This document shows positions 28,335-51,789 of a DNA stretch of 64,000 nucleotides, one piece after another; the stretch's first letter is position 1, and each line of letters opens with the position of its first letter. The DNA is from a virus. Lineage: Duplodnaviria; Caudoviricetes. The notes beneath the pieces are model-generated. The model was not told the DNA's origin, searched no databases, and saw nothing but the letters and a program-made list of their open reading frames with translations. The translations under genes were made by a program, and so were the position numbers. The DNA lies in the IMG/VR virus record IMGVR_UViG_3300025389_001063; one strand, written 5' to 3'.

Positions 28335-28445
28335 TAAATATACGGAAAGTTTATCGGCCGGGTGGTGATTTTTACCCACTAGGCTTGTTTGTATGTAAAC
28401 AATAGACTTGCTTACTAAGCCGGCCACCCCACTCTGTTCATACCG
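28335..28445 (+). ncRNA. Candidate late-promoter-driven structured RNA at the strand-convergence point
   Basis: TAAATA 28335-40 with no downstream + ORF; nested stems GGGTGG/CCACCC, GGCTT/AAGCC, TTGTTT/AAACAA. Confidence 0.3.
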
Positions 28446-28446
28446 G

Positions 28447-29088
28447 TCACCACTCGAGTGGATTGCCTTTCCAATCGAAGAACCGTCCACTAAAGTCTTC
28501 AGGGAGATTCTCTAAAGTTCTCAAAACTTCTTCTGCTGACCTTGTGGGTTCTAGTGTAGCGAATTGACCTCCCATATCTGTCTTGACCCAACCTGGATCG
28601 ATTGCATAGACAAATATTCGTTTGGGTTTAAGATCAACTGCTAAACATTGTACCAGTTTATGTACAGCAGCCTTGCTCATTCTATATCCTAGACTGTATG
28701 TGGGATCGATATGATGTTCACCATAGCGGCCATATACAGTAACGCCACCTGTTAGTACAGAGCTACCCATCTCTGAACTAATAACAGCAATACGACTCTC
28801 GGGTTCTAGATGTGGGACTGCTGACTGTACCGTTCTCAGTGCGCCCACAGCATTGACATTGATTACATCTAGTATAGTATCTGGGTTTGAGTATAGAGTA
28901 TTCTCGCCATCTTTTACAGCAGCATTAACAATCAGCCGTTGGAATCTATCTGCGTCGCCAAATCTATATGATTGTCTCACGTCCCATTCTCTGCGGGTCA
29001 TAGCACAAACTTCGTGTCCTGTGAGTCTACATTGATCAGTTAGTGCTCTACCTAGTCCTCTATTAGTACCTGTTATAAGATATCTCAT
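28447..29088 (-). CDS. SDR-family oxidoreductase (CsgA-like)
   Basis: ITGTNRGLG, VNAA, SSEMGS, YRMSK, PGWVKTDMGG. Confidence 0.9.
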   Translation of the reverse strand: MRYLITGTNRGLGRALTDQCRLTGHEVCAMTRREWDVRQSYRFGDADRFQRLIVNAAVKDGENTLYSNPDTILDVINVNAVGALRTVQSAVPHLEPESRIAVISSEMGSSVLTGGVTVYGRYGEHHIDPTYSLGYRMSKAAVHKLVQCLAVDLKPKRIFVYAIDPGWVKTDMGGQFATLEPTRSAEEVLRTLENLPEDFSGRFFDWKGNPLEW

Positions 29089-29188
29089 TCACATTCTTCC
29101 TCGTAGTGACATTCTTGATTAGCCCAATTATCCCGATCTGGGATAACTGTAGTAGCAGTTATGATTGTGAGCATGGCTAGAAAGAATT

Positions 29189-29473
29189 TCATTTGGCAAG
29201 TACATTTATCGCATGTAGTGCGCCAAAGAGGAAGAATATGAATAGCATCAAGGACAGTATAATTCCGGCCACCAATTCCCAGTAAGCAATAGCCAGTAAC
29301 AGCGCCAGCAGCCCCATAACGAGAGCAGCAAAGTAGAATGCGCCTATGGGCCATATATAGAGTAGACAAGTGAATACCACAAACACTATAAAGGCTGGTA
29401 TAACTGTATCAGTCTCTCTAAGTATATAAGTAAAGGCAGCGCCACCTATTATTGATAAGATAAAGAAAGGCAT
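29189..29473 (-). CDS. Small membrane protein
   Basis: 94 aa, almost entirely hydrophobic; GAGG SD. Confidence 0.65.
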   Translation of the reverse strand: MPFFILSIIGGAAFTYILRETDTVIPAFIVFVVFTCLLYIWPIGAFYFAALVMGLLALLLAIAYWELVAGIILSLMLFIFFLFGALHAINVLAK

Positions 29474-29474
29474 A

Positions 29475-29609
29475 TTACCTCTCCTCTATTGCTATAATGT
29501 GTCGTGGGTCGATACCCCATGCATCAAATGCTAAAGCAGCCTGTGTCCATGTGCGAGCTATGCAGTTAACTGCCTCGCCATTATCCAGTATGAATTTAAA
29601 CCAGGTCAT
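29475..29609 (-). CDS. 44 aa hypothetical protein (not in track)
   Basis: MTWFKFILDNGEAVNC..., fills the gap between neighbouring ORFs. Confidence 0.5.
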   Translation of the reverse strand: MTWFKFILDNGEAVNCIARTWTQAALAFDAWGIDPRHIIAIEER

Positions 29610-29610
29610 A

Positions 29611-29823
29611 TCAGTAGCTCCCTACTAGTTTGCCATCTTGATTGATATACACATAGACTCTACCGTATCCGATAGAGTTATCTATGTCTTCATATGCTAT
29701 TTTAAATATAGCATGACCGCGTTCGTTTACACCTTGGAACTCGACTTGTAGGAATTCATCTACATAGCCATTCTCGGCTAATGCTTCTAGTACTTCTTGT
29801 CGAGTCCATTTTGAGAGATCCAC
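29611..29823 (-). CDS. Hypothetical protein, tandem paralog of 29823..30041
   Basis: W(T)xxEV..LxxNGY...F.GVN..G...F.I...GRV.V...DG.LVG.[YF]. Confidence 0.7.
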   Translation of the reverse strand: MDLSKWTRQEVLEALAENGYVDEFLQVEFQGVNERGHAIFKIAYEDIDNSIGYGRVYVYINQDGKLVGSY

Positions 29824-30041
29824 TAGAAGTCTCCTACCAGTATGCCATCTTTGTTAAAGCCCACGAACACTCTACCTGTGTCAACACCATACTCGGCATC
29901 GTCGTTGTAGAATGTGATATCGAACATACCTTGTCCGCTTGCATTAACGCCCGCGAACTTTGCTTCAACTATCTCGCTCTCGTAGCCATTTGCTTCGAGA
30001 GATGCCTCTACCTCTTTGTGAGTCCAATTAGCAAGATTCAT
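29823..30041 (-). CDS. Hypothetical protein, tandem paralog of 29611..29823
   Basis: Same motif; GGAG SD. Confidence 0.7.
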   Translation of the reverse strand: MNLANWTHKEVEASLEANGYESEIVEAKFAGVNASGQGMFDITFYNDDAEYGVDTGRVFVGFNKDGILVGDF

Positions 30042-30052
30042 TTGCTTTCTCC

Positions 30053-30394
30053 TCAGTCCAGTCTCGAGCCAGCGTAGGCAGTGAAGCCATAGCGTTTGAA
30101 TACTTCAGCGGCAGCTCTTGCGCCTTCCTCTAGTGTGTCGATATTCTGACAGGGGAACTTAGCAGGGTTCCAAATTTGATATGAGCCAGTATAGCTCTTG
30201 CGGAAGCCCGCAGCCTTCATAGCCTTACCTAGTTTAGTATTACCCTTGATGCCGTAGATGTCGACCCAAGCAAAGCCGCAAGCATATTGATCCACACCGC
30301 CCAGCTTCTCCATAAAGAATTTGTGAGCAGCATCTTGAGCAATGGCTTGAGCTTCTTGGAGGATGTCTTGGAGTTCAGCAACGGAATAGTTCAT
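30053..30394 (-). CDS. Phage hypothetical protein
   Basis: ACGFAWVDI motif; own promoter and AAGGAG SD. Confidence 0.75.
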   Translation of the reverse strand: MNYSVAELQDILQEAQAIAQDAAHKFFMEKLGGVDQYACGFAWVDIYGIKGNTKLGKAMKAAGFRKSYTGSYQIWNPAKFPCQNIDTLEEGARAAAEVFKRYGFTAYAGSRLD

Positions 30395-30451
30395 ATCATG
30401 CTCCTTAGTGTCTATGAGTTTATAATAGCACCTAGTCCGTATTCGTCAACC

Positions 30452-30607
30452 TCACAGTCCGCAAGCGTCGTAGAAGCGCTGACGATTGAACTTTGGGTTT
30501 GCTTGTTTAGCAATGATAGCGAATGCTTCAGCAGCATCTAGAGCGCTCTTACGATCTTCCATCTTAGCGATTACTTCTGCCATTGCTTTGAAGTGCTTGC
30601 GGGACAT
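30452..30607 (-). CDS. 51 aa phage protein (not in track)
   Basis: MSRKHFKAMA...NPKFNRQRFYDACGL; promoter and AAGGAG SD. Confidence 0.75.
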   Translation of the reverse strand: MSRKHFKAMAEVIAKMEDRKSALDAAEAFAIIAKQANPKFNRQRFYDACGL

Positions 30608-30643
30608 ATCATGCTCCTTTGTTTATGAGTTTATAATAGCACC

Positions 30644-30940
30644 TTAAGCGAGTACGTCAACCCCGGGCCAAATCTCAACCCACCAGTGGCTTTGGCTTGC
30701 TAGGCTAGCACCACCTCGGAATGAAGTCCACTTCTCACCGTAGTCCTTGAGGTGATAGTTCATTCCTGCTTCGTTGAGTCGTTTACATACAGCAATTTTG
30801 TATGTCTCAGCATCTGTGCCGTGTCTATAGTAGAAGCCTCTGCGGATGACAATGCTTCCATCTCTGCGTTTACTAACAGTGTCGGCTAGGGCGGCGAGTG
30901 TGTTCGAAACTTGGGCTTGGAAGGACTTTGGCTTTGCCAT
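30644..30940 (-). CDS. Hypothetical protein
   Basis: Own promoter, GAGGAG SD. Confidence 0.7.
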   Translation of the reverse strand: MAKPKSFQAQVSNTLAALADTVSKRRDGSIVIRRGFYYRHGTDAETYKIAVCKRLNEAGMNYHLKDYGEKWTSFRGGASLASQSHWWVEIWPGVDVLA

Positions 30941-30989
30941 ATTGTGCTCCTCTGTTTATGAGTTTATAATAGCACCTCTGCGGGTGCTG

Positions 30990-31133
30990 TCAACTATGTC
31001 GTTTCACTTCGTGCCCGCACTCTGAGCAATGAAGCACACCGTCCCAATCGTCGTGTATAGATGTTTCCTCATAGTGACCCTTGCCGCACTTCTCGCAGAC
31101 CTGTCCCATATGATCGGTCGTTTCCTTGCCCAT
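30990..31133 (-). CDS. 47 aa zinc-ribbon protein (not in track)
   Basis: CEKC...CSEC; GAGGAG SD; its stop TGA is part of the next -35 box. Confidence 0.7.
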   Translation of the reverse strand: MGKETTDHMGQVCEKCGKGHYEETSIHDDWDGVLHCSECGHEVKRHS

Positions 31134-31169
31134 AGTGTGCTCCTCTGTTTATGAGTTTATAATAGCACC

Positions 31170-31391
31170 TTATGCCTCTTCGTCAACCGTATCCTCGAGG
31201 GCTTCGACGTTATATATAAAGTCCTGACAGTATGTCAACATACGCTGGAAAGCATATTGTTCTTCTTTGCTAAGTTCTGCGAGGAACTGCTCCATAGTCT
31301 TGCCATCGTCTACGGCTTCCCCTACGATGTCTAAGCAATCACGGAAGTCCATCATAGTGTTCTGAAAGCGGCAGTAAGACATGTTAGCCAT
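31170..31391 (-). CDS. Phage hypothetical protein
   Basis: MANMSYCRFQNT motif; AGGAG SD. Confidence 0.75.
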   Translation of the reverse strand: MANMSYCRFQNTMMDFRDCLDIVGEAVDDGKTMEQFLAELSKEEQYAFQRMLTYCQDFIYNVEALEDTVDEEA

Positions 31392-31406
31392 TTGACTCTC
31401 CTTTGC

Positions 31407-31640
31407 TTATGCTGTTACTTTAACAGACTTTGCCACATTGTCAACCACTTCACCTTTGATGTCAAATGAGAACTTACAAGCCTGGTCTAATGACATGCGA
31501 GTGATATAGAGATTGTCGGGATCTCCATCAGTCTCTAGATAGCGGATACGAGCACGACGGGCACGATCAAGAGTAGTATATAAACCCATCAACTCGTCAA
31601 AGTGCCCCCATCGATACCACACTCCGTATACATTTGACAT
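31407..31640 (-). CDS. Hypothetical protein, related to 32329..32550
   Basis: LMGLYTTLDRA vs MLGVYRTLDEA. Confidence 0.7.
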   Translation of the reverse strand: MSNVYGVWYRWGHFDELMGLYTTLDRARRARIRYLETDGDPDNLYITRMSLDQACKFSFDIKGEVVDNVAKSVKVTA

Positions 31641-31689
31641 AGTAGCCTCCTTTGTTTATGAGTTTACTATAGCACCTCTGCGGGCGTTG

Positions 31690-31881
31690 TCAATAGGACC
31701 CAATACCTCTGCGGACTTTGCGTTTAGGAGCAGCAGGTTTACGCTTGCTGATGTTTACATTCAGGAACTCTACAAGCAGGGCATCCATCATAGCATCACG
31801 CTGGGCGGGATCGTTGGTCTTGAGAACCTGGGTGAATCGGGGTGCAGCACTATCTAAGAACCTATCCATTGCCTTTGACAT
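31690..31881 (-). CDS. Small basic hypothetical protein
   Basis: Promoter and AAGGAG SD. Confidence 0.65.
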   Translation of the reverse strand: MSKAMDRFLDSAAPRFTQVLKTNDPAQRDAMMDALLVEFLNVNISKRKPAAPKRKVRRGIGSY

Positions 31882-31895
31882 CGTATGCTCCTTTG

Positions 31896-32117
31896 TTATG
31901 CTCTTACTTTAGCACCTTTGCGGAGTATGTCAACCAAGCCCTGTTGTAGTGTTGACAATTCCTCATTGTCAACATATATGTCAGTTCGGGGATCCCAATA
32001 CTGCCCTTCACGCGGATCATAGTAAAGGATTCTACCGTTGGCGTATGTAAACGGGCCCTCTAGTCCTTTGCGAGGGCCAAACCCGTGATCGATATGGGGA
32101 AGAACAGTATAGCCCAT
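31896..32117 (-). CDS. Phage hypothetical protein
   Basis: LYYDPREGQYWDPRTDIYV motif. Confidence 0.75.
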   Translation of the reverse strand: MGYTVLPHIDHGFGPRKGLEGPFTYANGRILYYDPREGQYWDPRTDIYVDNEELSTLQQGLVDILRKGAKVRA

Positions 32118-32127
32118 TTGATTCTCC

Positions 32128-32313
32128 TTAATCTATCAAGTCCCCATCACTGAACTCAATGTCTACTTCATAGTTCCAGTTCTTAGAACGTTCTTCAGGG
32201 GTAGCATCGAAGAACTGCTTCTCTGCTTTCTGGACTGCCTTCTTGGCACTCTTGGCTTCTACTTCGATAGCGTAGCGGACGATCTCTTGTATTTCTACGA
32301 TGAACTTAGCCAT
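32128..32313 (-). CDS. Small acidic hypothetical protein
   Basis: Promoter and AAGGA SD. Confidence 0.65.
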   Translation of the reverse strand: MAKFIVEIQEIVRYAIEVEAKSAKKAVQKAEKQFFDATPEERSKNWNYEVDIEFSDGDLID

Positions 32314-32328
32314 TTGACGTTCCTTTGT

Positions 32329-32550
32329 TTATGCTGCTAATATAGCATCACTGTTCAGTGTGTCAACCACTTGGGGAAGTCCTGCTTCCTCACTGAGCAT
32401 TTTTTGAACTATCTCGTAGGAGTCATACCCTCCCTGTTCTAGTGCTACCTCTCTAGCCCAAAAGCGAGCCTCATCTAGTGTGCGATAAACGCCCAGCATA
32501 TCTGATTCACCGTATTGTAAACATCCTACGAGTATGTACAGCATCGTCAA
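32329..32550 (-). CDS. Hypothetical protein
   Basis: Promoter upstream; related to 31407..31640. Confidence 0.65.
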   Translation of the reverse strand: MTMLYILVGCLQYGESDMLGVYRTLDEARFWAREVALEQGGYDSYEIVQKMLSEEAGLPQVVDTLNSDAILAA

Positions 32551-32581
32551 CTCCTATTGCTTATGATGCTATAATAGCACC

Positions 32582-32806
32582 TTAGTCCATATTGTCAACC
32601 TTGAACCAATCTTCTAAGATTTGATCTCGCCAAGCAGCCATATTCTCTAAGCCCACGTGTTCTTCCACATAATGATTAATATCTTCGTGGGGGAATTTAG
32701 AAAGATCCCATAGTGCTTGTTTGAGAGCATGTACGGCACTCTCGGCTCTGGAGAAAGTCATCTCCAGACTTTCATGTGCTTCTTGCATTTGATTATTGAT
32801 TGACAT
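32582..32806 (-). CDS. Hypothetical protein
   Basis: ATG 32806 with GGAGG SD. Confidence 0.65.
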   Translation of the reverse strand: MSINNQMQEAHESLEMTFSRAESAVHALKQALWDLSKFPHEDINHYVEEHVGLENMAAWRDQILEDWFKVDNMD

Positions 32807-32814
32807 AATACCTC

Positions 32815-33834
32815 CTACTTCAGACATGTAACAATAGCATAGTCTTGCCAACGGTCTTTGAATGACTTCTTCAAGTCCGCTAGTTTAAGTATAGTACGCA
32901 ATGAGAGCTCTCTGAGTTGCTTCTTGTTTGAGTCGACGAATTCTAGTATCTCGTCAACTTCTTCTTGTTCGAAGTTATAGTCGCGTAGCATACCGTCTTC
33001 GACAATCTGTTTGATACGTAGTATCTTATCGCGCTCACTGTCAATAGTGAGATCAACATAATGACTTCTGGATTCAAGAGCATCGAGGTGATCCTTCAGT
33101 TTCTTCGATTTGACATGATCGAATTTGATGTTAGTGATAAAGATAGCACTCGCTTTAAACTCAAAGCGATTTGGAATACCTTCACGTTCAAGCAAGCGAC
33201 TATCGGTATTCCAACTAATGTAACGACGCTTGCTGGAGTCTAGAGCAGCCTTGAGAATGTTTAGTGATAAGTCATCTAAGAGTACGCTATCGCAGTCGTC
33301 GAACACGATAACATTACCTGCTTCACTGTACTCGTATAGTTTAGCGTACAAGCCCAAAGCACTCATCGCACCTTTAACAATCTCGTACTTAGGCTTCTTG
33401 TTACCGATGGTGTTGAATAGGTCTGATTTAGCCAATTGGGCTTCGACACCAAAGGACTTACCGACGCCCGGTGGTCCACTAACGATAACAGCCCGTACAT
33501 TACCTTCTTTGGCAGCCTGTGTGATATCGGATAAGATTTTAAACCTTCTGCGGAGTCGTTCCTTAATCTCACTGTCAGTCTCCGTTGCTATATGCTTCTC
33601 TATATGATCGCTAATGTTGCCGTTTGATATCGAGTACGTACCGGTTGCTTGGGATACGCGGATGCGAATGTTGCGATCAGGGAAGCCGCGAACAGCACGA
33701 GCATCAACCGTGACATAATAGCCCTTGTCATCTTCTTTAGTCTCCTCTACGAGTGGAAACACCATACCAGCGACACTCTGAGGCTCACCTTTGATATTAT
33801 ATGTGCCCTCAGAGAACTTAATGAGAATGGACAT
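32815..33834 (-). CDS. AAA-family P-loop ATPase
   Basis: GPPGVGKS, VFDDCD, FITN, SR motifs; start ATG 33834. Confidence 0.88.
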   Translation of the reverse strand: MSILIKFSEGTYNIKGEPQSVAGMVFPLVEETKEDDKGYYVTVDARAVRGFPDRNIRIRVSQATGTYSISNGNISDHIEKHIATETDSEIKERLRRRFKILSDITQAAKEGNVRAVIVSGPPGVGKSFGVEAQLAKSDLFNTIGNKKPKYEIVKGAMSALGLYAKLYEYSEAGNVIVFDDCDSVLLDDLSLNILKAALDSSKRRYISWNTDSRLLEREGIPNRFEFKASAIFITNIKFDHVKSKKLKDHLDALESRSHYVDLTIDSERDKILRIKQIVEDGMLRDYNFEQEEVDEILEFVDSNKKQLRELSLRTILKLADLKKSFKDRWQDYAIVTCLK

Positions 33835-33937
33835 TCGTCTTATCCTTCTTACGGTTGTATACTTTTTTGGATTTAACAATACGCTTGCGAAAGAGCGGGT
33901 TGCTCAACGCAGCAGCATAAGGGTTATACTTACTCAT
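33818..33937 (-). CDS. 39 aa ArfA-like basic peptide (not in track)
   Basis: MSKYNPYAAALSNPLFRKRIVKSKKVYNRKKDK...; own promoter, AAGGAG SD. Confidence 0.6.
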   Translation of the reverse strand: MSKYNPYAAALSNPLFRKRIVKSKKVYNRKKDKTNVHSH

Positions 33938-33974
33938 CGCTCTCTCCTTATGCTGCTACTATAGCACCTATACT

Positions 33975-34208
33975 CTATGCGTCAACCCCCATGTGAAGTC
34001 TATCGCGAACTTCTTGTTCAGCCGCCCAATCCTCGAGCAATTTGGTAGCAGACTTAACCTGAGCAGCAACAGTAGGATGAGTCTCGATCAATCCCTTAAG
34101 GAATGACTCATAGAAGCCCGCTTGATAGTCAAACCCTGTGTGGGTAAGTTGGCTAGAACGACGGTTAACAGCGTCTTGAAAGCGCTCAAAAACGGATACT
34201 TCTGACAT
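33975..34208 (-). CDS. Hypothetical protein
   Basis: Promoter and AAGGAG SD. Confidence 0.7.
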   Translation of the reverse strand: MSEVSVFERFQDAVNRRSSQLTHTGFDYQAGFYESFLKGLIETHPTVAAQVKSATKLLEDWAAEQEVRDRLHMGVDA

Positions 34209-34261
34209 GCTCTGCTCCTTTGTTTATACCTTATAATAGCATAATGTTAGGGCTTGTCAAC

Positions 34262-34579
34262 CTATCGGCAGTATTGTCTACGAACCCAGCCATAGCGTTC
34301 GTCCCATCCACGACTATTAGTGCATCGATATGGTCGAGCAACCTCGACTTGTTCTTGTATAGCAACAGGCGGAGCCATGACTGCTGGGGGTGGAGGGGGA
34401 GGTGCTGCCATAGCACGAGAAGCAATAGCGCCTCCGATCATACCCCCGATGAGCCCCATTCCCATTTCCATGCCATAACCGCCATAGCCCCACATAGGGC
34501 TTGATCCCCAAAACTGAGCATGAGCAGGTGTTGCTGCTAGGGCAACAGCAACGACCGTTGTGGCTAAGACTTTACGCAT
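34262..34579 (-). CDS. Secreted Gly/Pro-rich protein with glycine zipper
   Basis: Signal peptide ...PAHA, GLIGGMIGGAIA, poly-Pro, paired Cys; ATG 34579. Confidence 0.7.
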   Translation of the reverse strand: MRKVLATTVVAVALAATPAHAQFWGSSPMWGYGGYGMEMGMGLIGGMIGGAIASRAMAAPPPPPPAVMAPPVAIQEQVEVARPYRCTNSRGWDERYGWVRRQYCR

Positions 34580-34751
34580 AGTCTTGTTCCTCATTGTAGA
34601 AGTATTGACGATCAAACCATTGGACTACATCTTCTTCAGTCCACATATGGGAGGATGGTAAGCAATGATACTTCTCACGATATGCTTCCCTGAATACTTC
34701 CCAGAGTGCTTCGTTTACAATAGCACATACTTCGTTTTTTGGTATTCCCAT
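34572..34751 (-). CDS. 59 aa hypothetical protein (not in track)
   Basis: Promoter at 34769-34798, GAGGA SD. Confidence 0.55.
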   Translation of the reverse strand: MGIPKNEVCAIVNEALWEVFREAYREKYHCLPSSHMWTEEDVVQWFDRQYFYNEEQDYA

Positions 34752-34801
34752 CGTGTCCTCCTATAATACATATTAGCATCTAATTGGACTGTGTCAACCA
34801 A

Positions 34802-34885
34802 TGGTATCCGCGGCCGGACTCGAACCGGCACGAACAAGTCGAGGGATTTTAAGTCCCTTGTGTCTACCAATTCCACCACGCGGAC
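34802..34885 (-). tRNA. trnL: tRNA-Leu(UAA)
   Basis: Type II cloverleaf, anticodon loop CT-TAA-AA, TTCGAGT T loop, encoded CCA. Confidence 0.95.
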
Positions 34886-34886
34886 A

Positions 34887-34963
34887 TGGTGCCCCCACTC
34901 AGACTTGAACTGAGAACCTGCGGTTTATGAGACCGATGCTCTAACCGATTGAGCTATGAGGAC
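34887..34963 (-). tRNA. tRNA with CAU anticodon (Ile2 or elongator Met)
   Basis: Cloverleaf, loop CT-CAT-AA, paired G1-C72 (not initiator), encoded CCA. Confidence 0.9.
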
Positions 34964-35106
34964 TATTCAGCAGCATACTTCTCTATGATTGCAATAGCTT
35001 GATCGATATGTTCCATGGCTTTAGTTAAAGCATCTTCGTTGCCTTCTAAACCTTCAATAATCTCGAAAGCATTATTGAGCATATCTAAAACTTCTTGCTT
35101 CTCCAT
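34963..35106 (-). CDS. 47 aa acidic helical protein (not in track)
   Basis: Promoter at 35125-35154, GGAGG SD; the last G of its TAG is tRNA G1. Confidence 0.6.
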   Translation of the reverse strand: MEKQEVLDMLNNAFEIIEGLEGNEDALTKAMEHIDQAIAIIEKYAAE

Positions 35107-35154
35107 AGCTGCCTCCTATTTTCTAGTATATAGTGAGTAGAGGCACTCGTCAAG

Positions 35155-35176
35155 AAAAAAGGGGGATTTCTCCCCC
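35155..35176 (-). terminator. Intrinsic terminator
   Basis: Minus strand GGGGGA-gaaa-TCCCCC-TTTTTT. Confidence 0.85.
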
Positions 35177-35182
35177 TATTCT

Positions 35183-35512
35183 TTAAGCGAGTTCAGCCTT
35201 AGGAACAAAAGTCGGTTGAGCGATATTCGCCTTAGTCTTAGCCTTAGGTGCCTTAGCAGCAACCTTAGGGGTCTGCTTTACATTCTTAGCAGCATAATCC
35301 GCGAACACCGACTGAGCCTCTGTGTTCTCAAATAGTGCCAGCGTGGACAAATACGCCACAGCAGCGTCCTTTGACATAGCCTGAGGCAACTCAACTAGGT
35401 CAATGTCCTTATGACCATTGCGCTGAAGCACCTTGACTCGCGTAACGAAGTCATTGGCAAAGCGAAGCTTGAGAGCACCATTTTGACGTGAAAGACCAGC
35501 AACTGTAAACAT
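35183..35512 (-). CDS. Phage protein with Lys/Ala-rich tail, putative DNA-binding
   Basis: FTVAG.S...KLRFAND..RVKVL.RNGH; own promoter, 5' hairpin, terminator. Confidence 0.7.
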   Translation of the reverse strand: MFTVAGLSRQNGALKLRFANDFVTRVKVLQRNGHKDIDLVELPQAMSKDAAVAYLSTLALFENTEAQSVFADYAAKNVKQTPKVAAKAPKAKTKANIAQPTFVPKAELA

Positions 35513-35591
35513 ACTTAACTCCTCTTCTGTGTGTGTTGGGCACCATTGCCCATAGTCCTATAATAGCACCTCTATGAGTGCTGTCAACCGG

Positions 35592-35888
35592 TTAAGCCAT
35601 AACCGGATCTATGACAGGTGCTAACATATTAGCCGGCACCCGATAATTCCCACGCGACGTATTCACAATCACGTTCTTCTGCATGACCTTCTCTACTGTG
35701 CCAAATAACTTCTGACCAGCACGGTTAGTGAACGATACCTTAGAGCCAGATCGCACCATAGAAGTATTACGCTTAGCCAATTGAGCCCTACGATACTTCA
35801 TAGCATCGATGAGCATATTAAGTTCATCATTAGAAGCTTCGAATTGAATGAAGCTGATAGCAGCATTACGAGCAGCAACAGTAGACAT
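35592..35888 (-). CDS. SH3/KOW-like hypothetical protein
   Basis: GSKVSF...GTVEKV...NVIV...YRVPANML; AAGGAG SD before ATG 35888. Confidence 0.7.
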   Translation of the reverse strand: MSTVAARNAAISFIQFEASNDELNMLIDAMKYRRAQLAKRNTSMVRSGSKVSFTNRAGQKLFGTVEKVMQKNVIVNTSRGNYRVPANMLAPVIDPVMA

Positions 35889-35943
35889 ATCCAACTCCTT
35901 AGTTCTCATCCTATACCTTACTATAACACCTTATTCGATAGTG

Positions 35944-36120
35944 TCAACCAGCTAAGAAATACCAAAACCCAGCAACAATATAGAATCCAAACATCATATT
36001 GCGAACCCAATCAATCTTGAAACACATCAAGCCAGTGAATAACCAAACCGAGGCTATGACCATCCCATATTCGTTAAGGTTGATCAAAGTTAATGCAGCA
36101 GCAAGTAGGATCGCATACAT
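35944..36120 (-). CDS. Small membrane protein
   Basis: Hydrophobic; ATG 36120; stop TGA lies in the next -35 box. Confidence 0.6.
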   Translation of the reverse strand: MYAILLAAALTLINLNEYGMVIASVWLFTGLMCFKIDWVRNMMFGFYIVAGFWYFLAG

Positions 36121-36186
36121 TGGCTCTCTCCTTATGCCCTTAGTATAGCAGGGGCTGTCCAATTGTCAACCCCTGCTTGTTTACAA

Positions 36187-36336
36187 TCAAGGCACTCTGA
36201 TAAAAGCCGCATCCCCCCTCTTATTAAAGATCACAGCCTGAGAATTCTGCAACCATGACTCCTTCTCGGCAAAAGCCTTGGCATCTTCCCAATTGTCGAA
36301 CTTTTGAGTTACCTTACCAATCTTGACTGTAAACAT
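36187..36336 (-). CDS. 49 aa hypothetical protein (not in track)
   Basis: TAATG-coupled to the upstream gene; FDNWEDAKAFA. Confidence 0.55.
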   Translation of the reverse strand: MFTVKIGKVTQKFDNWEDAKAFAEKESWLQNSQAVIFNKRGDAAFIRVP

Positions 36337-36806
36337 TATTCTGACTCCTCTTCTTCCTCTTCCCACATAGCATTATTCTCACTAATAGAAAACTCCATAT
36401 CGATGTCTTCAGGAATATCCTTAGTGCCTTCATAGCAGTCGTCCTCACCATCAGTCCAACGACCACAGAAGTCCATGCCTGGCTCATAGTAGAATGCATC
36501 TACTTCAAAGTCTAACTCTACCAAATGCTCATAGAACGCCAGTGGAGGTGACCAAGCAGTCTCAAATGATAAGTTCAATTGATCAAACCTTATAGCAGCA
36601 GGACTATCGAAACCACGCTCAACATCCCACTTGGTGCCCCAGTTCTCTAGGTTCCAATTATACCAACCTTCACCCTCTAATAGCTCTGGGGGAGTAGGGA
36701 GGAAGGCTTTGAACAAGCCCTCACCATTATAACCAGCCGCCGCCTTCTCTAGCATGGCTCGGTCTTTGTGCTTAAGATAAAGTGTATTTGAACACCAATT
36801 AGGCAT
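36336..36806 (-). CDS. YubB/DUF1281 (Api92-like) ferredoxin-fold protein
   Basis: MPNWCSN, WNLENWGTKW, FETAWSPP, YYEPGMDFCG. Confidence 0.8.
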   Translation of the reverse strand: MPNWCSNTLYLKHKDRAMLEKAAAGYNGEGLFKAFLPTPPELLEGEGWYNWNLENWGTKWDVERGFDSPAAIRFDQLNLSFETAWSPPLAFYEHLVELDFEVDAFYYEPGMDFCGRWTDGEDDCYEGTKDIPEDIDMEFSISENNAMWEEEEEESE

Positions 36807-36848
36807 AGCAGCCTCTCTTGTTAGAGTTTACGATTATATAATAGCACC

Positions 36849-37277
36849 TTACGCGGGTATGTCAACCAGCTCCTTATCGCTGTTGCGGCACTCCCACTTG
36901 CCGTTTACATATACATAGGAGTAATCCTGCCCGCGATCATCTGCGAGGAACTCATAGATATCTTTATATTTGTGAGCCTTTGTGCATGTCTCACCACGAT
37001 CGCGTCCATACGCTTTACACCAGTTCTCGGTGCGGGCTTCATATGCGGCACGCTCTGCTTCAGGAACTTCAAACTGGCTAAAGGCATGCTTACGACCAAT
37101 CTTTGGTCCTAGCACAGATAAGTCCCCTAGCTTTATGAGATTAACGATCTTACTAGGAGTATTATAATGGTCCCGCAAGATACGACCATTATGCTCTGGA
37201 TAACCGTCCCAGTGGCAGTAGATGCCCTTAACAAACCCGTTCTCGTCCATAACACCGATTAAGCTGCGAGTGCCCAT
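36849..37277 (-). CDS. Phage/plasmid-type hypothetical protein
   Basis: MGTRSLIG...IYCHWDGYP motif. Confidence 0.75.
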   Translation of the reverse strand: MGTRSLIGVMDENGFVKGIYCHWDGYPEHNGRILRDHYNTPSKIVNLIKLGDLSVLGPKIGRKHAFSQFEVPEAERAAYEARTENWCKAYGRDRGETCTKAHKYKDIYEFLADDRGQDYSYVYVNGKWECRNSDKELVDIPA

Positions 37278-37435
37278 TGTAGGCTCCTTGTTAGCGTTTA
37301 TGATATTACTATAGCACCTTAGTCTTCTCTGTCAACCAAGTCCCATAGGTTGATCAAAGCATAGGAGACGAACAAACCAATCACACTACCAATTAACACG
37401 CCTACTATAAACATCGTTGTCTCCCTTGCTTATGA

Positions 37436-37648
37436 TTATATAATAACATCATCCCGGAATCTGTCAACCTCGGCTAAGTCACTAAAATCTATAGCAGTTC
37501 CCACGAGCCAACGACGCTTGGCTTCATTGGCTGTTGACATATCCTTATAGCCCACAGCGAATGCAAACTCGTCATCCTCCCAGAAGTTAACAACCCAAAT
37601 AGCATTGCCGTCTATAGTGAAGTCTATCTCTGATTTACATTCACGCAT
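37436..37648 (-). CDS. Hypothetical protein
   Basis: ATG 37648 with GGAG SD, own promoter. Confidence 0.6.
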   Translation of the reverse strand: MRECKSEIDFTIDGNAIWVVNFWEDDEFAFAVGYKDMSTANEAKRRWLVGTAIDFSDLAEVDRFRDDVII

Positions 37649-37711
37649 GATATGCTCTCCTATAGTCACAATAATAGCGTCGAATTGAATTATGTCAACC
37701 GACGCTATTGA

Positions 37712-38074
37712 TTAGAACTTTAAAGGTGGAACTGATTGTGGGATGCTACCAGGCACATTCGATGGCGGTGGAGTTACTGGCTTTCCTACTGACATAACCA
37801 ACGGGCTAACAAATGGAGAAAAATTATTCCATCCCTCTCCAGAAGCCGGAAGAGTGTTGTTATCAACTGGGGTAATATCTAATATTCTTCCCTGCCACGC
37901 AGCAACAGAACTAGCAGCCTGAGCCCAATTTAAAAGAGCATCTTCTGGATTGATCTGATTACTGAATACATAACGAATGGTGATGTCATATACTGTAGCA
38001 TCTAATCCCGCAGGAACCTGTGTCATTAGATACTGATTCTCTGAGAGTAATTCTGGATTCTTTGGTTGAGCCAT
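37712..38074 (-). CDS. Pro-rich hypothetical protein
   Basis: ATG 38074, GAGG SD; weakly similar to 38087..38305. Confidence 0.65.
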   Translation of the reverse strand: MAQPKNPELLSENQYLMTQVPAGLDATVYDITIRYVFSNQINPEDALLNWAQAASSVAAWQGRILDITPVDNNTLPASGEGWNNFSPFVSPLVMSVGKPVTPPPSNVPGSIPQSVPPLKF

Positions 38075-38086
38075 GCTATTCCTCAA

Positions 38087-38305
38087 TTAACCTATTTTAG
38101 TTACGTCTGTGATAGAAGTTCCTGGAACAAATGGAGGCTGAGTACTAGCGAACTTGCCAGTCATCATGTCTGCTAATAATTGTTCAATGTCTGAACCCTT
38201 AGGTATACTGAAATTCAAAGTGACACTGTAAATGTCATGTGAAGCATCAGGTACTAGGGGTGTTTCAAATAATTGTACTAATGTTGGATTTGTTGGTTTT
38301 ACCAT
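38087..38305 (-). CDS. Hypothetical protein
   Basis: TAAATA upstream (38337-38332), GGAG SD. Confidence 0.65.
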   Translation of the reverse strand: MVKPTNPTLVQLFETPLVPDASHDIYSVTLNFSIPKGSDIEQLLADMMTGKFASTQPPFVPGTSITDVTKIG

Positions 38306-38347
38306 AGTTTCTTCTCCCTTGCAAGGTAAACTATTTAGCCTGCTAGG

Positions 38348-38424
38348 TGGCGATTCCGGAACGATTCGAACGTTCGACCTGCTGATTAGAAGTCAGCTGC
38401 TCTATCCTGCTGAGCTACGGAATC
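38348..38424 (-). tRNA. trnR: tRNA-Arg(UCU)
   Basis: Cloverleaf, loop CT-TCT-AA, encoded CCA. Confidence 0.95.
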
Positions 38425-38425
38425 A

Positions 38426-38501
38426 TGGTGCCCGAAGACGGATTCGAACCGCCGACCTACTGATTACAAATCAGTTGCTCTACCAGCTGAGCTATTCGGG
38501 C
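38426..38501 (-). tRNA. trnT: tRNA-Thr(UGU)
   Basis: Cloverleaf, loop TT-TGT-AA, encoded CCA. Confidence 0.95.
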
Positions 38502-38686
38502 GCTTTTATATGCTGCTTCATCTTACGTCGGAACTCTGCTACACTGTGAAGTCTATATACTGCTTCACGAACACTAAGTCCCTCATGGTATGCTGAGTAT
38601 ATATCACCTCCGGTGACCTTGTCAATGGGAAATCCGACTGCTCTCAACTCATTAACAAATTGCTGAAATGCTGTTCCACTAGACAT
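38492..38686 (-). CDS. Hypothetical protein
   Basis: GGAGGG SD; the 3' end overlaps tRNA-Thr. Confidence 0.55.
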   Translation of the reverse strand: MSSGTAFQQFVNELRAVGFPIDKVTGGDIYSAYHEGLSVREAVYRLHSVAEFRRKMKQHIKAPE

Positions 38687-38706
38687 ATATCCCTCCCTAG
38701 ATGAAG

Positions 38707-38730
38707 AGTGGGCAGATTAACCGCCCACTA
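38707..38730 (-). terminator. Probable terminator hairpin after the HTH gene
   Basis: AGTGGGC...GCCCACT stem; weak U tract. Confidence 0.45.
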
Positions 38731-38741
38731 TTGTTTATTTA

Positions 38742-38987
38742 TTAAGCGAAGATCTTAGCGCGGCTACCTGTGATATCACGGGCACTCACAGCATACTTCG
38801 CACGTCCCTCTTGAGTCTTCTCACGACGAATCCGTAAACCAACAGCACGTAGATCGCTAATGCGAGCACGGAGGTTGCCAATGCCATATGTAGCACGAGC
38901 TTGAGCCTCTGTCAATGTGCGGCCAGTACCACGAAGATAGTCTTCAAGAAACTCTACCTGAGAAACTGTTAAATGAGTAAATGCCAT
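38742..38987 (-). CDS. Winged-HTH DNA-binding protein
   Basis: RTLTEAQARATYGIGNLRARISDLRAVG. Confidence 0.7.
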   Translation of the reverse strand: MAFTHLTVSQVEFLEDYLRGTGRTLTEAQARATYGIGNLRARISDLRAVGLRIRREKTQEGRAKYAVSARDITGSRAKIFA

Positions 38988-39070
38988 ATTGCCTATTCCT
39001 TTGTCAATGCGCTGTCTACAGCGTCTTTATACTATAACAGCGCATATGACAAAGATCAAGCAGTTTGGCT

Positions 39071-39364
39071 CTATTCGCTCTCAGGCTCGAATTCTTCTTC
39101 AGATATAGCATACTCTACCTGCTCGTCTAGCTCAAAGTAATAGCTCTCAAGCTCATCGCAGACACCGTCAATGTCATAACGATGCTCTGTATAATAGTCG
39201 TAGGCGTGAGCCAATTCCTTAGCACGAAGCGACTTAACAATGGTTTGGAGATGCTCTATAACATTCTCAATGTCAGCAGCTATATAACCTAAGTCGTCGC
39301 TGTCGACAATGTTTAAGTCCTGAGCTACGTTGAGATAAAACATGTTAGGTTCAAAGTCGCGCAT
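39071..39364 (-). CDS. Acidic hypothetical protein
   Basis: Promoter-like site near 39390, GAGG SD. Confidence 0.65.
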   Translation of the reverse strand: MRDFEPNMFYLNVAQDLNIVDSDDLGYIAADIENVIEHLQTIVKSLRAKELAHAYDYYTEHRYDIDGVCDELESYYFELDEQVEYAISEEEFEPESE

Positions 39365-39415
39365 GATAGCCTCTCTGTGTTGCTATAGCTTACAATAACA
39401 CAAACGACCCAAAAG

Positions 39416-39721
39416 TCAAACTCCCGACCACCTTACACTATTCCAATTGCGAGCAAGTATATTACCGCGGGCGAAGTTCTTAGCAGGTGACGCATAAGAA
39501 GCAGCCTTTAGAATGTCACCCTGCTTGAACTTGCCATCATCCTGCTTGACAATGAACGAGTGAACACTACGGTCTACAATGACCTTGACATACTTACTTC
39601 CATTAGTGAAATCAACCTTGCGTTCAGCTTCTTCTAATGTATACATACCCGTCTTAGCATAATCAGCCCTAATGTGATCAAGGTAATCTAAGAAGTTGAG
39701 TTGAAAGTCCTTGAAGCTCAT
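39416..39721 (-). CDS. Phage hypothetical protein
   Basis: KYVKV...VHSFI...GDILKAAS...PAKNFARGNI. Confidence 0.75.
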   Translation of the reverse strand: MSFKDFQLNFLDYLDHIRADYAKTGMYTLEEAERKVDFTNGSKYVKVIVDRSVHSFIVKQDDGKFKQGDILKAASYASPAKNFARGNILARNWNSVRWSGV

Positions 39722-39722
39722 G

Positions 39723-40052
39723 TTAACCCCTCTTGTCTGTGTTCAATACAGGACGATATTGACGAATTAACTCACGCTCTAATTTATGAGCAGCAACCTT
39801 ACCACGCACTATATACTCTGCTTTTATAACAGCTTCACGGCGATCTGTCAATGACCGAAGAGCGCTATAAAGTGACCAATGTAACCGGGCGGGATCATTC
39901 CTCCGGTACCAATGCTTACTAAGACGCGACCAGAGGCTTTTTGGAACAGTAGATTCAGTTTTCGCCGTGACGCCAACATATAGGTCTCCATCTATCGTTA
40001 TTGAATATACGATATGATTACGGTCCACTCGCTTTTTTCTTACTGCTTTCAT
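39723..40052 (-). CDS. GIY-YIG-like nuclease domain protein
   Basis: IVYSI...YVGVT...RLSKH...LERELI...P.LNT; probable leaderless start at 40052. Confidence 0.7.
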   Translation of the reverse strand: MKAVRKKRVDRNHIVYSITIDGDLYVGVTAKTESTVPKSLWSRLSKHWYRRNDPARLHWSLYSALRSLTDRREAVIKAEYIVRGKVAAHKLERELIRQYRPVLNTDKRG

Positions 40053-40088
40053 AATAACAATATACACTCAATTCCAAACTAGTCAACC

Positions 40089-40283
40089 ACTAGATATAGT
40101 CACTCAGAACACTAGATATAGTGGACTACATATAGTTACCCACTGACTACATATAGTAGGTTGACACTATATCTATAGACGCTATTATAGAATTATGAAA
40201 GCGAACCAGCAATAGCAGACTCGCTAGGGAGTATACTTCGGGGAACCCTGACCTCAAGGTCGTTTACATAAACAACATATAGT
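40089..40283. promoter_or_regulatory. ACTA(G/C)ATATAGT box cluster between divergent promoters
   Basis: Copies at 40089, 40111, 40125, 40146; variants at 40166 (reverse) and 40272; flanked by GTCAAC 40082 and GTTGAC 40160. Confidence 0.65.
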
Positions 40284-40285
40284 CC
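40195..40285 (+). ncRNA. Candidate small RNA A
   Basis: Follows TTGACA-N16-TATTAT; no SD/ORF beyond 6 codons; shares a 33-nt module with unit B. Confidence 0.5.
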
Positions 40286-40343
40286 CTGGTTGACATATAA
40301 AATTGTGACCTTATTATCATACTATAAGCAATAGGAGATCCCA

Positions 40344-40583
40344 ATGCGCAAACTGTCCTACTCAGAAGCCTTTGCTCGTATTGAATCCACATCCTGGACA
40401 GAATTGTATACAATGCTCTATGACTCCCACAAGGACTTCTATGGCTACAAGGGTCGCTATCTATATAACTATACCAAAGAGGAACTCCTCAATTGGTTTT
40501 CGGATCACTTCATGTGGGATAACGACGAACAGTTTTGGCGCAATCAAGTCCCCTTTTACGAATACAACCCGGAGGATATGTGA
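40344..40583 (+). CDS. Hypothetical protein
   Basis: LYDSHKDFYGYKGR motif; promoter at 40290, AGGAG SD. Confidence 0.75.
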   Translation: MRKLSYSEAFARIESTSWTELYTMLYDSHKDFYGYKGRYLYNYTKEELLNWFSDHFMWDNDEQFWRNQVPFYEYNPEDM

Positions 40584-40584
40584 T

Positions 40585-40806
40585 ATGCACTATGCTCAAT
40601 TCTATAATCAAACAGCCAAAGGTCTCCTCGAAGCTTGTGGTGATCGCGCTGTTATTATACTAGATGGTAGAGAATCACAGTGGAAGCAGGAACATACCGC
40701 AAGGCAGGAATGTGCCAAAAGAGGTTATGTGGCTTTTAGACTTTATAAAGGTGAGTCATTTACTCGTTCATGGCCAATCTCTCAAATCACAGTTTTGCCA
40801 GGTTGA
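40585..40806 (+). CDS. Phage hypothetical protein
   Basis: EACGDRAVIILDGR motif; ATG 40585 after GGAGG. Confidence 0.75.
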   Translation: MHYAQFYNQTAKGLLEACGDRAVIILDGRESQWKQEHTARQECAKRGYVAFRLYKGESFTRSWPISQITVLPG

Positions 40807-40836
40807 CGCACCCGCTAGTGATGTTAATATAACAAT

Positions 40837-40930
40837 ATAAAGCGCACACCCAATAGGGATCGCGTGATGGGTTCAAGTTCCGCCGAACTCTGACCTCCAG
40901 GTCGTTTACATAAACAAAATCGCGACCTAG
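40837..40930 (+). ncRNA. Candidate small RNA B
   Basis: Follows TTGACG-N16-TAATAT; homologous to unit A. Confidence 0.5.
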
Positions 40931-40946
40931 AAGATCACCCCAGGCG

Positions 40947-40981
40947 AATGTATACTATACCAATTCACTATAGTATACATT
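40947..40981. repeat. Perfect 12-bp inverted repeat
   Basis: AATGTATACTAT-N11-ATAGTATACATT at a convergence point. Confidence 0.75.
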
Positions 40982-40983
40982 AA

Positions 40984-41415
40984 CTACTTCTTCTGCTGTT
41001 TACATACTTCACCAGTGTTTACAGACTGAGTGCATACGTTTACATTAACTGTGGTGGGCGCTGCTACCGGAACCGGAACAGGGACTTTTTTGTATACAAC
41101 ACGACGCTTGACGACTACGCGATCTCTTACTATAATGCGATCTCTGTATACAACAGCAGGTGGCTGCTGAACTATTACAGCAGGCGGAGTCTCTATTACA
41201 ACAGGTGGCTGAGGAACTACTACTCGTCTCCTCACTATTACTTGCTGTGGATATAAGGTTTCCATAGAATCCACATATGGATTATATCCCGGTGGCGGTA
41301 ATGCTGTTTGTGGCGCAGCATATGGATATCCCGGTCCCGCTCCGGGATAATATTGGGCGTGAGCACTTCCCGCTATTAGTACACTAGATATAGTGGCAAT
41401 CACAATACGTTTCAT
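40984..41415 (-). CDS. Secreted Pro/Val-rich protein
   Basis: Signal peptide ...SAHA; PPVVIE/PPAVIV/PPAVVY repeats; GGGAG SD; own promoter. Confidence 0.7.
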   Translation of the reverse strand: MKRIVIATISSVLIAGSAHAQYYPGAGPGYPYAAPQTALPPPGYNPYVDSMETLYPQQVIVRRRVVVPQPPVVIETPPAVIVQQPPAVVYRDRIIVRDRVVVKRRVVYKKVPVPVPVAAPTTVNVNVCTQSVNTGEVCKQQKK

Positions 41416-41445
41416 GCTTTAGACTCCCTATAATAAGACTATACG

Positions 41446-41531
41446 ACGATATATAGTACCTGTCAACCATGGTCTTGGCGTGTTTTGAATGCTAGATATA
41501 GTAGATCTATACACTAGATATAGTGGTTGAC
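41446..41531. promoter_or_regulatory. Second divergent -35 pair with ACTAGATATAGT boxes
   Basis: GTCAAC 41462 and GTTGAC 41526; boxes at 41491 and 41513, variant 41446, extra copy 41383. Confidence 0.6.
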
Positions 41532-41712
41532 CGTGGTGACGACAGGCTTAGTTCAAATGGTATCTTTCCGATTTTGTCCAAGTTCTTCCTATTCACCACT
41601 ATATCGACAATCTATCTCTATAGTAGTTCGCCTGTCTAATCGCCGCGTTCAAGCCAGCGACTACTGTGGATCTCGTGTGCTTATAGCAGCGCCCACAGCT
41701 TTCCTAAGATGC

Positions 41713-41966
41713 ACAGCGGGGCCACTATGCATTAGGATCTCTATCGTCGTTTGCATGTATATCCAAAGGCGGCACAGCGGGGCCAGTAGTATTCCATTTA
41801 GTTCCTGCTAGTACCACCAATGGGATTGTTCTTTTTATAAAGTAAGTACCAGTTGTTACAGCGGGGCCTTTAAATACAGCATATGTTTTAACGGGACCTC
41901 TACTACGTTTACGATTAGCCTTTTTAAAGAAGTCTTTAAGATCGTTCATTATGTTACAGCGGGGCC
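41713..41966. repeat. Four exact direct copies of ACAGCGGGGCC
   Basis: At 41713, 41774, 41858, 41956. Confidence 0.85.
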
Positions 41967-42358
41967 TGTATGTAGAGTATCAGTATATGTATTTGTGCCT
42001 TCTATACGATCTAGTAGTGTCTGTTCTAGTTGTTCAACTTCTGCTTCTAGTGCTCTAGTTTCCCTATAAAGTTCTACTAGTCTGTCTTTCTTTGGTACTA
42101 GTATAAGATTGTATAGTGCTATTTCTTCTATGCTCATCATTGTGGATTTACTCTTTTCTTTAGTATAGCAAGTGTTCTATGATAGCGTTCGTTTAGTATG
42201 TTAAGACTATCAATAAGTTCGCTATATTCATTACTCAATCTATAGCGTTCTTTACTGTTTAGTATGTTAAGTCTATCTATAATATTACTACGTTCATCTA
42301 GTGTATTATTTGAAGTTATTTCTAGTTGTTCTATAGTCATTGTTATTAGATCTTCCAT
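41725..42358 (-). CDS. Three short coupled ORFs (42137..42358, 41949..42140, 41725..41949), uncertain
   Basis: Overlapping stop/start junctions but no recognisable motif; GPAV peptides derive from the 11-mer repeat. Confidence 0.35.
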
Positions 42359-51374: not shown

Positions 51375-51789
51375 TTACTTATCATCGTAATGGGCCTTGC
51401 CCAAATTGTCTACCCAGAATCCTGGCTTACGATTTATGCCTTCGTCTCTTAATTTTTTATCAAATTCAAATCTTTTTTCCACATACCAATATATTCGTTC
51501 TTGTTCATCATTTGGTGGAGTTTGTTTTCTGACCCATTCTATGTATTGCACTTCAAACTCTGCTTGTGTTATTATTGTCACAGCCCCACCTCATAAAGAA
51601 TAATAGTCTGTCGTTAGGGTCTTCTATTATTAAAAAGTGTGGCTCTTGTGTGACTACGACCCCGGGAAATGTTTTTATAGCTTCCCAATTCTTTACTGCC
51701 CACTGAACATCTCTAATATAGATGAGTTGTGGGACTTCTAAGTCTTCGCATGTTTCAAAGTACTTAGTACGCATGACTTTACTTATCAA
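51375..51789 (-). CDS. Two small ORFs (51375..51581, 51553..51789)
   Basis: 51553 ends DRLLFFMRWG (family motif). Confidence 0.6.

Follow-up and report, generated by a model that had tools for sequence, protein, structure and literature searches.

The put RNAs of phage HK022 are double hairpins of about 65 nt encoded downstream of two early promoters; acting in cis and with no phage protein, they enable the polymerase that transcribes them to read through terminators further on (PMC8632103). The PeSLs of T4-type phages, composite terminator/promoter motifs found many times per genome between small ORFs, provide a precedent for early-promoter modules that recur in a plastic region and have small, variable genes between them (PMC2839356, PMC4122927). 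Among virulent phages, only a few have so far had small RNAs predicted for them (PMC8244752).

The locus described here bears a likeness to all three. In a 64,000-nt stretch of DNA, hereafter the window, two promoter-driven units, A and B, lie at the edges of a block of small genes, and each carries a two-hairpin domain behind its promoter. The size of the domain (about 60-65 nt), its double-hairpin form, its place downstream of early promoters, the presence of two copies and the non-coding character are shared with putL and putR (PMC8632103). This likeness is one of analogy and not of homology, since the covariance model that detects both units (R1), run on the complete genome of HK022, matches nothing at E values of 10 or below; moreover, no terminator-gene arrangement that read-through could serve lies downstream of the units, and the host and the phage type are unrelated, ours being a freshwater phage of about 350 kb. 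With the PeSLs the locus shares repeated early-promoter modules around small genes, the content between the modules differing among close relatives, whereas the hairpins here are placed downstream of the promoter, within the part predicted to be transcribed, and covary, with two copies in 95 kb. With the small RNAs of virulent phages it shares a small, predicted non-coding product, an early tRNA-bearing region and a large phage of virulent type. Those RNAs are candidates drawn from transcript data, few of them backed by comparison, whereas the comparative support presented here comes from sequence alone and the units have no canonical terminator.

Results

Genomic setting

The window is part of an IMG/VR virus record of 95 kb, estimated to be 27% complete. 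A gene product identical to one of this phage is also encoded on a contig of 352,510 nt, which puts the phage genome at about 350 kb. Domain annotation revealed a DnaB-like helicase, an ATP-dependent ligase, radical-SAM proteins, a Tlde1-domain protein and an OprB-family porin, whose gene (51786-53165) indicates a Gram-negative host. The G+C content is 42-47% between 28 and 42 kb, against 29-36% in the remaining window. The high-G+C stretch (28000-42000) coincides with a promoter-punctuated array of small early cassettes, and the contrast in composition suggests a mosaic or separately evolving region. Each cassette of the array contains one gene downstream of GGTTGAC(A/G)-N10-rGGTGCTATTAT. The region, predicted to be early, bears tRNAs at 34802-34963 and 38348-38501. 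A replication origin at 40-41 kb was considered and rejected, GC skew giving no clear signal there.

The promoters of units A and B are sigma-70-like in a promoter scan and belong to the same class as those of about 15 one-gene early cassettes; the promoters of these other cassettes lack the RNA element described below. The resemblance to early-gene leaders proposed in the earlier note is genuine, several cassette leaders reading CATAAACA(A/G)AGGAG.

Architecture of the two units

Both promoters had been recognized in the earlier note and were located as described, each with a 16-nt spacer. The promoter of unit A (40161-40188, plus strand) consists of a -35 box TTGACA (40161-66) and a -10 box TATTAT (40183-88), and its spacer contains a CACTAGATATAGTG-type box read on the minus strand (40165-40178). 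Transcription is predicted to start at about A40195. The RNA core of the unit (40194-40253, plus strand) scores 57.7 bits with R1 (E 2e-14) and comprises hairpin 1 (40200-40225; outer stem AGCGA/TCGCT, inner stem GC/GC, loop AATA) and hairpin 2 (40227-40253; GGG...CCC), which is weak in the unit A variant. A third hairpin, GACC-TCAA-GGTC, occupies 40250-40261 and is followed by the 12-mer GTTTACATAAAC (40262-40273), 16 nt upstream of the -35 box of a second promoter, P2.

The promoter of unit B (40803-40830, plus strand) has a -35 box TTGACG (40803-08), which overlaps the stop codon of the preceding 73-aa gene, and a TG-extended -10 box TAATAT (40825-30). With the predicted start at about A40837, the RNA core extends over 40836-40896 of the plus strand and scores 85.5 bits (E 1e-22). 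Hairpin 1 (40842-40865) is built of GCGC/GCGU, an internal loop and CCC-AAUA-GGG. Hairpin 2 (40869-40896) is formed by GGGUUCAAGUUC and GAACUCUGACCU, for which two registers are possible; hairpin 3 (40892-40903; GACC-TCCA-GGTC) shares nucleotides with the outer stem that hairpin 2 has in its extended form. The 12-mer GTTTACATAAAC follows at 40904-40915, with degenerate copies further on at about 41000-41050.

The sequence shared by the two units was initially reported as a 33-nt module at 40243-75 and 40885-917. The 31 of 33 identities given for it hold and extend to 33 of 36 positions (repeat family D6), and a 26-nt version has two matches in the window where 0.00 are expected. In both units the module begins at the 55th nucleotide past the end of the -10 box, with 54 nt between, and it contains the GACC/GGTC and GTTTA/TAAAC palindromes with a single difference in the loop. 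Likewise, AAAGCG is present in both units, and the stem next to the AATA loop reads GC/GC in A but CCC/GGG in B. Since AAAGCG and AATA lie 641 nt apart between the units and the module copies 642 nt apart, there is a one-nucleotide shift between the 5' halves, and the units differ by a 1-nt indel. No third copy was found in the 95-kb virus record, either by sequence or by covariance model, and no intrinsic terminator was predicted after either unit on the plus strand of 40161-41000. The discrete transcript of about 90 nt that had been envisaged is unsupported.

The units begin with ATG in A and with ATA in B, and their reading frame is not conserved across homologs, in agreement with the earlier view that they are non-coding. 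A micro-ORF product was rejected on the grounds that ATG occurs in A-type units only and that stop codons interrupt the plus-strand frames. The ATG of A-type units falls at the predicted start of transcription and opens a frame of 4-6 codons (MKANQQ-stop, MKSQ-stop; window 40195-40215 and L015:2766-2780, minus strand), which could be a leaderless micro-ORF; in B-type units ATA stands at this place.

Homologous units and their distribution

Twenty homologous units with 17 distinct cores were gathered from the window and 12 metagenome contigs. All of them lie at a fixed distance downstream of GGTTGAC(A/G)-N16-TAnnnT promoters, and the GGTTGAC...TAnnnT layout, a -35/-10 pair with a 16-nt spacer, is retained in every homolog with upstream sequence on its contig. 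A scan of metagenome contigs with GACCNNNNGGTCGTTTANNTAAAC gave 18 matches, among them five true homologs in which the whole unit, promoter included, could be aligned; further units came from a core-pattern scan and from contigs encoding neighbours of the units. The core-pattern scan of 185,579 species genomes yielded one true locus, L027 (JBJTKU010000021.1). This contig of 5.7 kb is collinear with the phage region and was binned into an actinobacterial MAG of Ca. Planktophila. The binning looks wrong, as the phage bears an OprB porin gene typical of Gram-negative hosts.

Other searches returned no homologs: blastn of 39900-41200 against the phage collection and an exact-pattern scan for the module in viral contigs gave no match, no relatives of the 79-aa operon protein were found in viral contigs, and the core-pattern scan of viral contigs produced only chance matches in coding DNA. 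The contig encoding P0006 has no unit, and in distant jumbo phages, related through the 73-aa protein only (56-42% identity), the element is absent. The family is found so far only in one narrow lineage of uncultivated freshwater phages.

A conserved fold on the promoter-sense strand

It is very likely, from the comparison of homologs, that a conserved plus-strand RNA fold sits behind the unit promoters. As predicted by RNAalifold, hairpin 1 consists of an outer stem of 4 bp and an inner stem of 3 bp, with a 3x3 internal loop between them and a tetraloop at the tip. Of the seven pairs, six are altered on both sides while pairing is kept, and 96-100% of the cells are paired. The outer stem takes the versions GCGC/GCGU, GAGC/GCUC, UCGC/GCGG and GCGA/UCGC; the inner stem is found as CCC/GGG, CCU/GGG, CCU/AGG, GGA/UCC, GUC/GAC, GCU/GGC and GC/GC. 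In the specified structure 97% of the cells are paired, and none of 500 column shuffles equalled the observed pairing or covariation score; when the partners are displaced by one to three columns, the pairing falls from 93-97% to 19-50%. The covariation is also present when all 17 sequences are aligned. A4 and A5 are alignments fitted to the model, but the structure-blind MAFFT alignment A1 already sets all units in register and gives the same result, so the fit to the model is not the cause of the covariation. The predicted hairpin 1 is thus proven by covariation.

Hairpin 2 pairs GGGUUC-AAGUUC with GAACYC-UGACC in either of two registers. The short register is 95.6% paired and the extended 10-bp helix 88-90%; when five units were folded, the latter had the lowest energy in three, all of the GGGUUC type, and it would account for the conservation of UGACC even where hairpin 3 is absent. 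All substitutions in hairpin 2 are of the kind G-C to G.U or U.G to U-A, with no double compensatory change, and for this reason the register stays two-fold.

Across both hairpins there are 24 G.U cells against no A.C, and 189 of 195 cells pair on the promoter-sense strand against 165 of 195 on the opposite one. The excess of G.U over A.C means that the fold exists only on the strand transcribed by the promoter, which argues for RNA. Among B units, identity amounts to 0.90 in the core, 0.68 in the promoter spacer and 0.37 in the upstream coding ends, indicating selection on the transcribed part. Folding of the sequences one by one gave no significant energy for either strand (z from +0.5 to -1.9), so the case for RNA rests on covariation. 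The suggestion of a structured RNA in the earlier note is borne out by the compensatory changes in 17 distinct homologs and the strand-specific G.U pairs.

The note also failed to recognize the family, and a search of Rfam 15 has now likewise matched none: at gathering thresholds the only matches are four tRNAs elsewhere in the window, and a permissive scan of 40150-41000 gave only two minus-strand matches at chance level (E 1.2 and 1.8). Having no match in Rfam 15, among tRNAs or in phage records, the units constitute a new predicted family of phage-encoded structured RNA.

Several identities were tried and rejected. A tRNA or tRNA-like element lacks the cloverleaf (ARAGORN, RF00005) and the acceptor stem, and the similarity of GGGTTCAAGTTCC to a T-arm is a mere resemblance, the flanking stem pairing inconsistently across homologs in alignment A4. 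A self-cleaving ribozyme has no Rfam match, and for a mimic of a CRISPR repeat the 4-bp hairpin is not conserved. Anti-Shine-Dalgarno mimicry by ACCUCC was discarded because this sequence is not conserved (variants TCAA, TGGA, TTCC), and a ToxI-like RNA of a type III toxin-antitoxin system because the units are single copies 642 nt apart and form no tandem array. When both units were compared with the whole window by RNAduplex, self-antisense matches and diffuse long duplexes were the only result, and these pointed to no target. Each unit has its own promoter, as a classical trans-acting small RNA gene would; a Rho-independent terminator of its own was not found.

The 33-nt module and the 12-mer

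The reading in the earlier note started from the shared 33-nt module. This module turns out to be the least RNA-specific part of the unit; the conserved RNA is the 5' part of about 60 nt made up of hairpins 1 and 2. The module is a composite of the 3' strand of hairpin 2 (its first 11 nt), the optional hairpin 3 and the separate 12-mer. The GACC/GGTC pairing of hairpin 3 is kept in some units, in L027 through a C-to-U change giving G.U; in other units it is swapped for an unrelated hairpin, UUGAUA-GUA-UAUCAA, and the units of a third group, L019B and L045-L048, either lack it or have it disrupted. Hairpin 3 has no U tract, and its lack of conservation leaves a discrete small RNA unproven.

The 12-mer was counted 44 times in 11 of the 12 loci scanned, every copy oriented like the units and none opposite. 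Many copies lie outside the units, 4-44 nt upstream of TTGAC and in arrays; in relatives the motif also occurs upstream of both the leftward and the rightward promoter of a divergent control region. Two of its variants form the perfect palindrome GTTTATATAAAC. The 12-mer thus behaves as a separate motif, apart from the RNA core and probably bound by protein.

The gene block and its surroundings

The operon between the units (40344-40806, plus strand) contains the two ORFs given in the earlier note, encoding 79 aa (40344-40583) and 73 aa (40585-40806), and has its own promoter P2 (40290-40317, plus strand; TTGACA-16-TATTAT), conserved in L019, L035 and L027. No family could be assigned to either protein, and they appear as variable cargo: from locus to locus the slot holds genes for 79+73, 100, 100+83+53, 83+53 or 53 aa. 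Unit B closes the plus-strand gene block in all 11 loci covering that position, and no plus-strand gene follows it, in the window for about 12 kb. Unit A opens the block in most loci and is missing in one relative, L010, so the twin arrangement is not obligatory.

A convergent gene of 143 aa (40984-41415, minus strand) with an N-terminal signal-peptide-like segment faces unit B in all loci. Where transcription from unit B would meet this gene there is a perfect 13-bp inverted repeat, AATGTATACTATA / TATAGTATACATT (40947-40981), the only strong structure ahead of unit B; the motif is conserved and reiterated in relatives. The transcript of unit B is likely to end at this repeat. A terminator-like hairpin for the 143-aa gene lies on the minus strand from 40938 to 40922, its T-tract overlapping the unit B 12-mer, so that the two transcripts would overlap at their 3' ends. 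The spacer between unit B and the convergent gene measures 66 nt in the window and up to about 330 nt in relatives. The expanded spacers (L015:1590-1760, L017:850-1045 and L027:560-860, minus strand; L019:3740-3960, plus strand) comprise 260-330 nt of non-coding DNA in which GTTTACATAAAC and GAATGTATACTATAC each occur three to five times, almost always pointing the same way. By its composition, an expanded spacer looks like an iteron or operator array, or a non-coding transcript bearing repeats.

The locus is rich in boxes other than the 12-mer, among them ACTAGATATAGT boxes. Boxes of the CACTAGATATAGTG type, ACTA(G/C)ATATAGT, have nine matches against 0.8 expected. They form two clusters that bracket the whole 1.45-kb module, one between the divergent promoters left of unit A (40084-40158; 40084-40178 including the overlap with the unit A promoter) and one at the right flank (41378-41530), which reaches into the promoter of the 143-aa gene. 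A 19-nt inverted repeat is made up by the outermost boxes and includes the -35 boxes (40082-40100 / 41513-41531). A small winged-helix protein (38742-38987, minus strand; Pfam HTH_39, E 5e-9), whose gene is conserved beside the locus in the relatives L030-L034 and L027, may be what binds one of these types of box.

Repeats are also found beyond the module. At 41711-41970 of the window there are four direct repeats with ACAGCGGGGCC at intervals of 61, 84 and 98 nt, and the presence of ACAGCGGGGCC three times in L017 (about 210, 95 and 20, minus strand) shows that it is conserved in relatives. In L004, a distant jumbo-phage relative, an identical terminator-like hairpin module of about 40 nt, TTTACTCATGCCCATTCTAATGAGTGGGCATTGTTG, is found at 1628-1670 and 2418-2457, flanking an operon that holds a homolog of the 73-aa protein. 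In this phage group, cassettes may often be bordered by regulatory modules that recur.

Discussion

We tentatively favour, with slightly less than even confidence, the reading that each unit is an early-promoter cassette making a structured non-coding RNA that acts in trans by binding protein. Host sigma-70 RNA polymerase would initiate about 7 nt past the -10 box and would first produce the two-hairpin domain of about 60 nt. Its hairpin 1, with the 4-bp outer stem, the 3x3 internal loop and the 3-bp inner stem, would be capped by a RAUM tetraloop, and hairpin 2 would form from GGGUUCAAGUUC and GAACYCUGACC. The folded domain would be the functional part, most likely as a stand-alone structured non-coding RNA. 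Hairpin 2 is near invariant whereas hairpin 1 drifts with compensation, which suggests recognition of a shape together with one specific surface; a protein would thus recognize the domain through its shape and the nearly invariant sequence of hairpin 2. The transcript of unit B probably reaches the 13-bp inverted repeat, giving an RNA of about 150 nt, while in unit A the same domain would stand at the 5' end of a transcript that continues into P2 and the two genes. The 12-mer would be part of the system of protein-binding boxes of the locus and not of the RNA core. An RNA product is favoured by the fact that unit B serves no gene and that the unit fills a gene-like cassette slot. Early transcription, the transcript end and the action in trans through protein binding are what we infer from this arrangement.

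The main rival, which we regard as unlikely, is a cis element of the put kind, in which the nascent two-hairpin RNA stays on its own RNA polymerase and makes it resist pausing and termination. It is the architecture that speaks for it: about 60 nt in two hairpins, the same as in put (PMC8632103), directly next to the promoter at invariant spacing, in two copies per genome and with no terminator of its own. The conservation of hairpin 2 in sequence instead of by covariation is what a specific contact would predict, and unit B stands about 50 nt ahead of the only strong hairpin on its path. The surroundings fit less well, as the 12 kb past unit B offer no plus-strand gene to be reached, no terminator is predicted between unit A and an operon that has P2 in any case, and unit A is dispensable in L010; the failure of R1 to find anything in the HK022 genome counts on the same side. 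By analogy, we consider with considerable doubt that the domain could be a protein-independent RNA polymerase modifier that arose independently in a lineage of jumbo phages, as part of an early promoter cassette, or alternatively that it primes or activates the adjoining repeat array. A further reading, which we hold to be improbable, makes promoter B a driver of convergent or antisense transcription that directs polymerases across the repeat array and into the 3' end of the 143-aa gene, regulating it by transcriptional interference or an RNA duplex, with the structured 5' domain only stabilizing the RNA. That unit B always faces a homolog of the 143-aa gene, and that the T-tract of the terminator-like hairpin of this gene reaches the unit B 12-mer, would be expected under such a scheme. 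It leaves unit A unexplained, as this unit points in the same direction as its downstream genes, and the spacer to the convergent gene is far from constant (66 to about 330 nt). The predicted 5-6 unpaired nucleotides at the 5' end are also unlike a protective 5' hairpin; in a hairpin that protects against RNase E, they would be unexpected.

The two remaining readings place the function in DNA. The variation in the genes between units A and B, and the overlap of promoter -35 boxes with upstream stop codons, as in other cassettes, would agree with cassette boundaries of the PeSL kind (PMC2839356, PMC4122927), in which promoter-plus-repeat modules supply recombination homology for gene shuffling and the RNA fold is incidental. 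Recombination homology, however, predicts neither compensatory double changes that retain pairing amid divergence nor the 24:0 excess of G.U over A.C, and PeSLs are composite terminator/promoter motifs (PMC4122927), whereas here the conserved hairpins lie inside the transcribed region; we rate this reading as highly improbable. Improbable in the extreme is the notion of an operator only, according to which the module is a pair of palindromic protein-binding sites and there is no product. The recurrence of the 12-mer where there is no RNA core, both in arrays and 4-44 nt ahead of -35 boxes, its perfect palindrome GTTTATATAAAC in a relative and the abundance of other boxes at the locus are all in keeping with operators, but they fit the 12-mer only: the core upstream covaries as RNA, GACC/GGTC tolerates G.U in L027 and is replaced by unrelated sequence in other units, and a symmetric operator would not predict one orientation for 44 of 44 copies. 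The earlier note had named conservation of the DNA palindrome, with no compensatory changes, as the sign of an operator. This applies to the GTTTACATAAAC palindrome, an independent reiterated motif, and fails for the 5' part, which is compensated as RNA. The covariation is explained by none of these last three readings, be it antisense transcription, cassette boundaries or operators.

The locus thus presents a compact RNA domain with strong covariation and a defined promoter, fixed at the edges of a shuffled gene block and surrounded by DNA dense with operator-like boxes. To our knowledge, comparative evidence for small RNAs of jumbo phages is almost absent. If the domain is merely a phage non-coding RNA, it would still be a clean new family for RNA databases. 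If it modifies RNA polymerase, only the polymerases starting at these two promoters would resist pausing and termination, and a put-like action would extend RNA-only control of the polymerase beyond its single lambdoid example.
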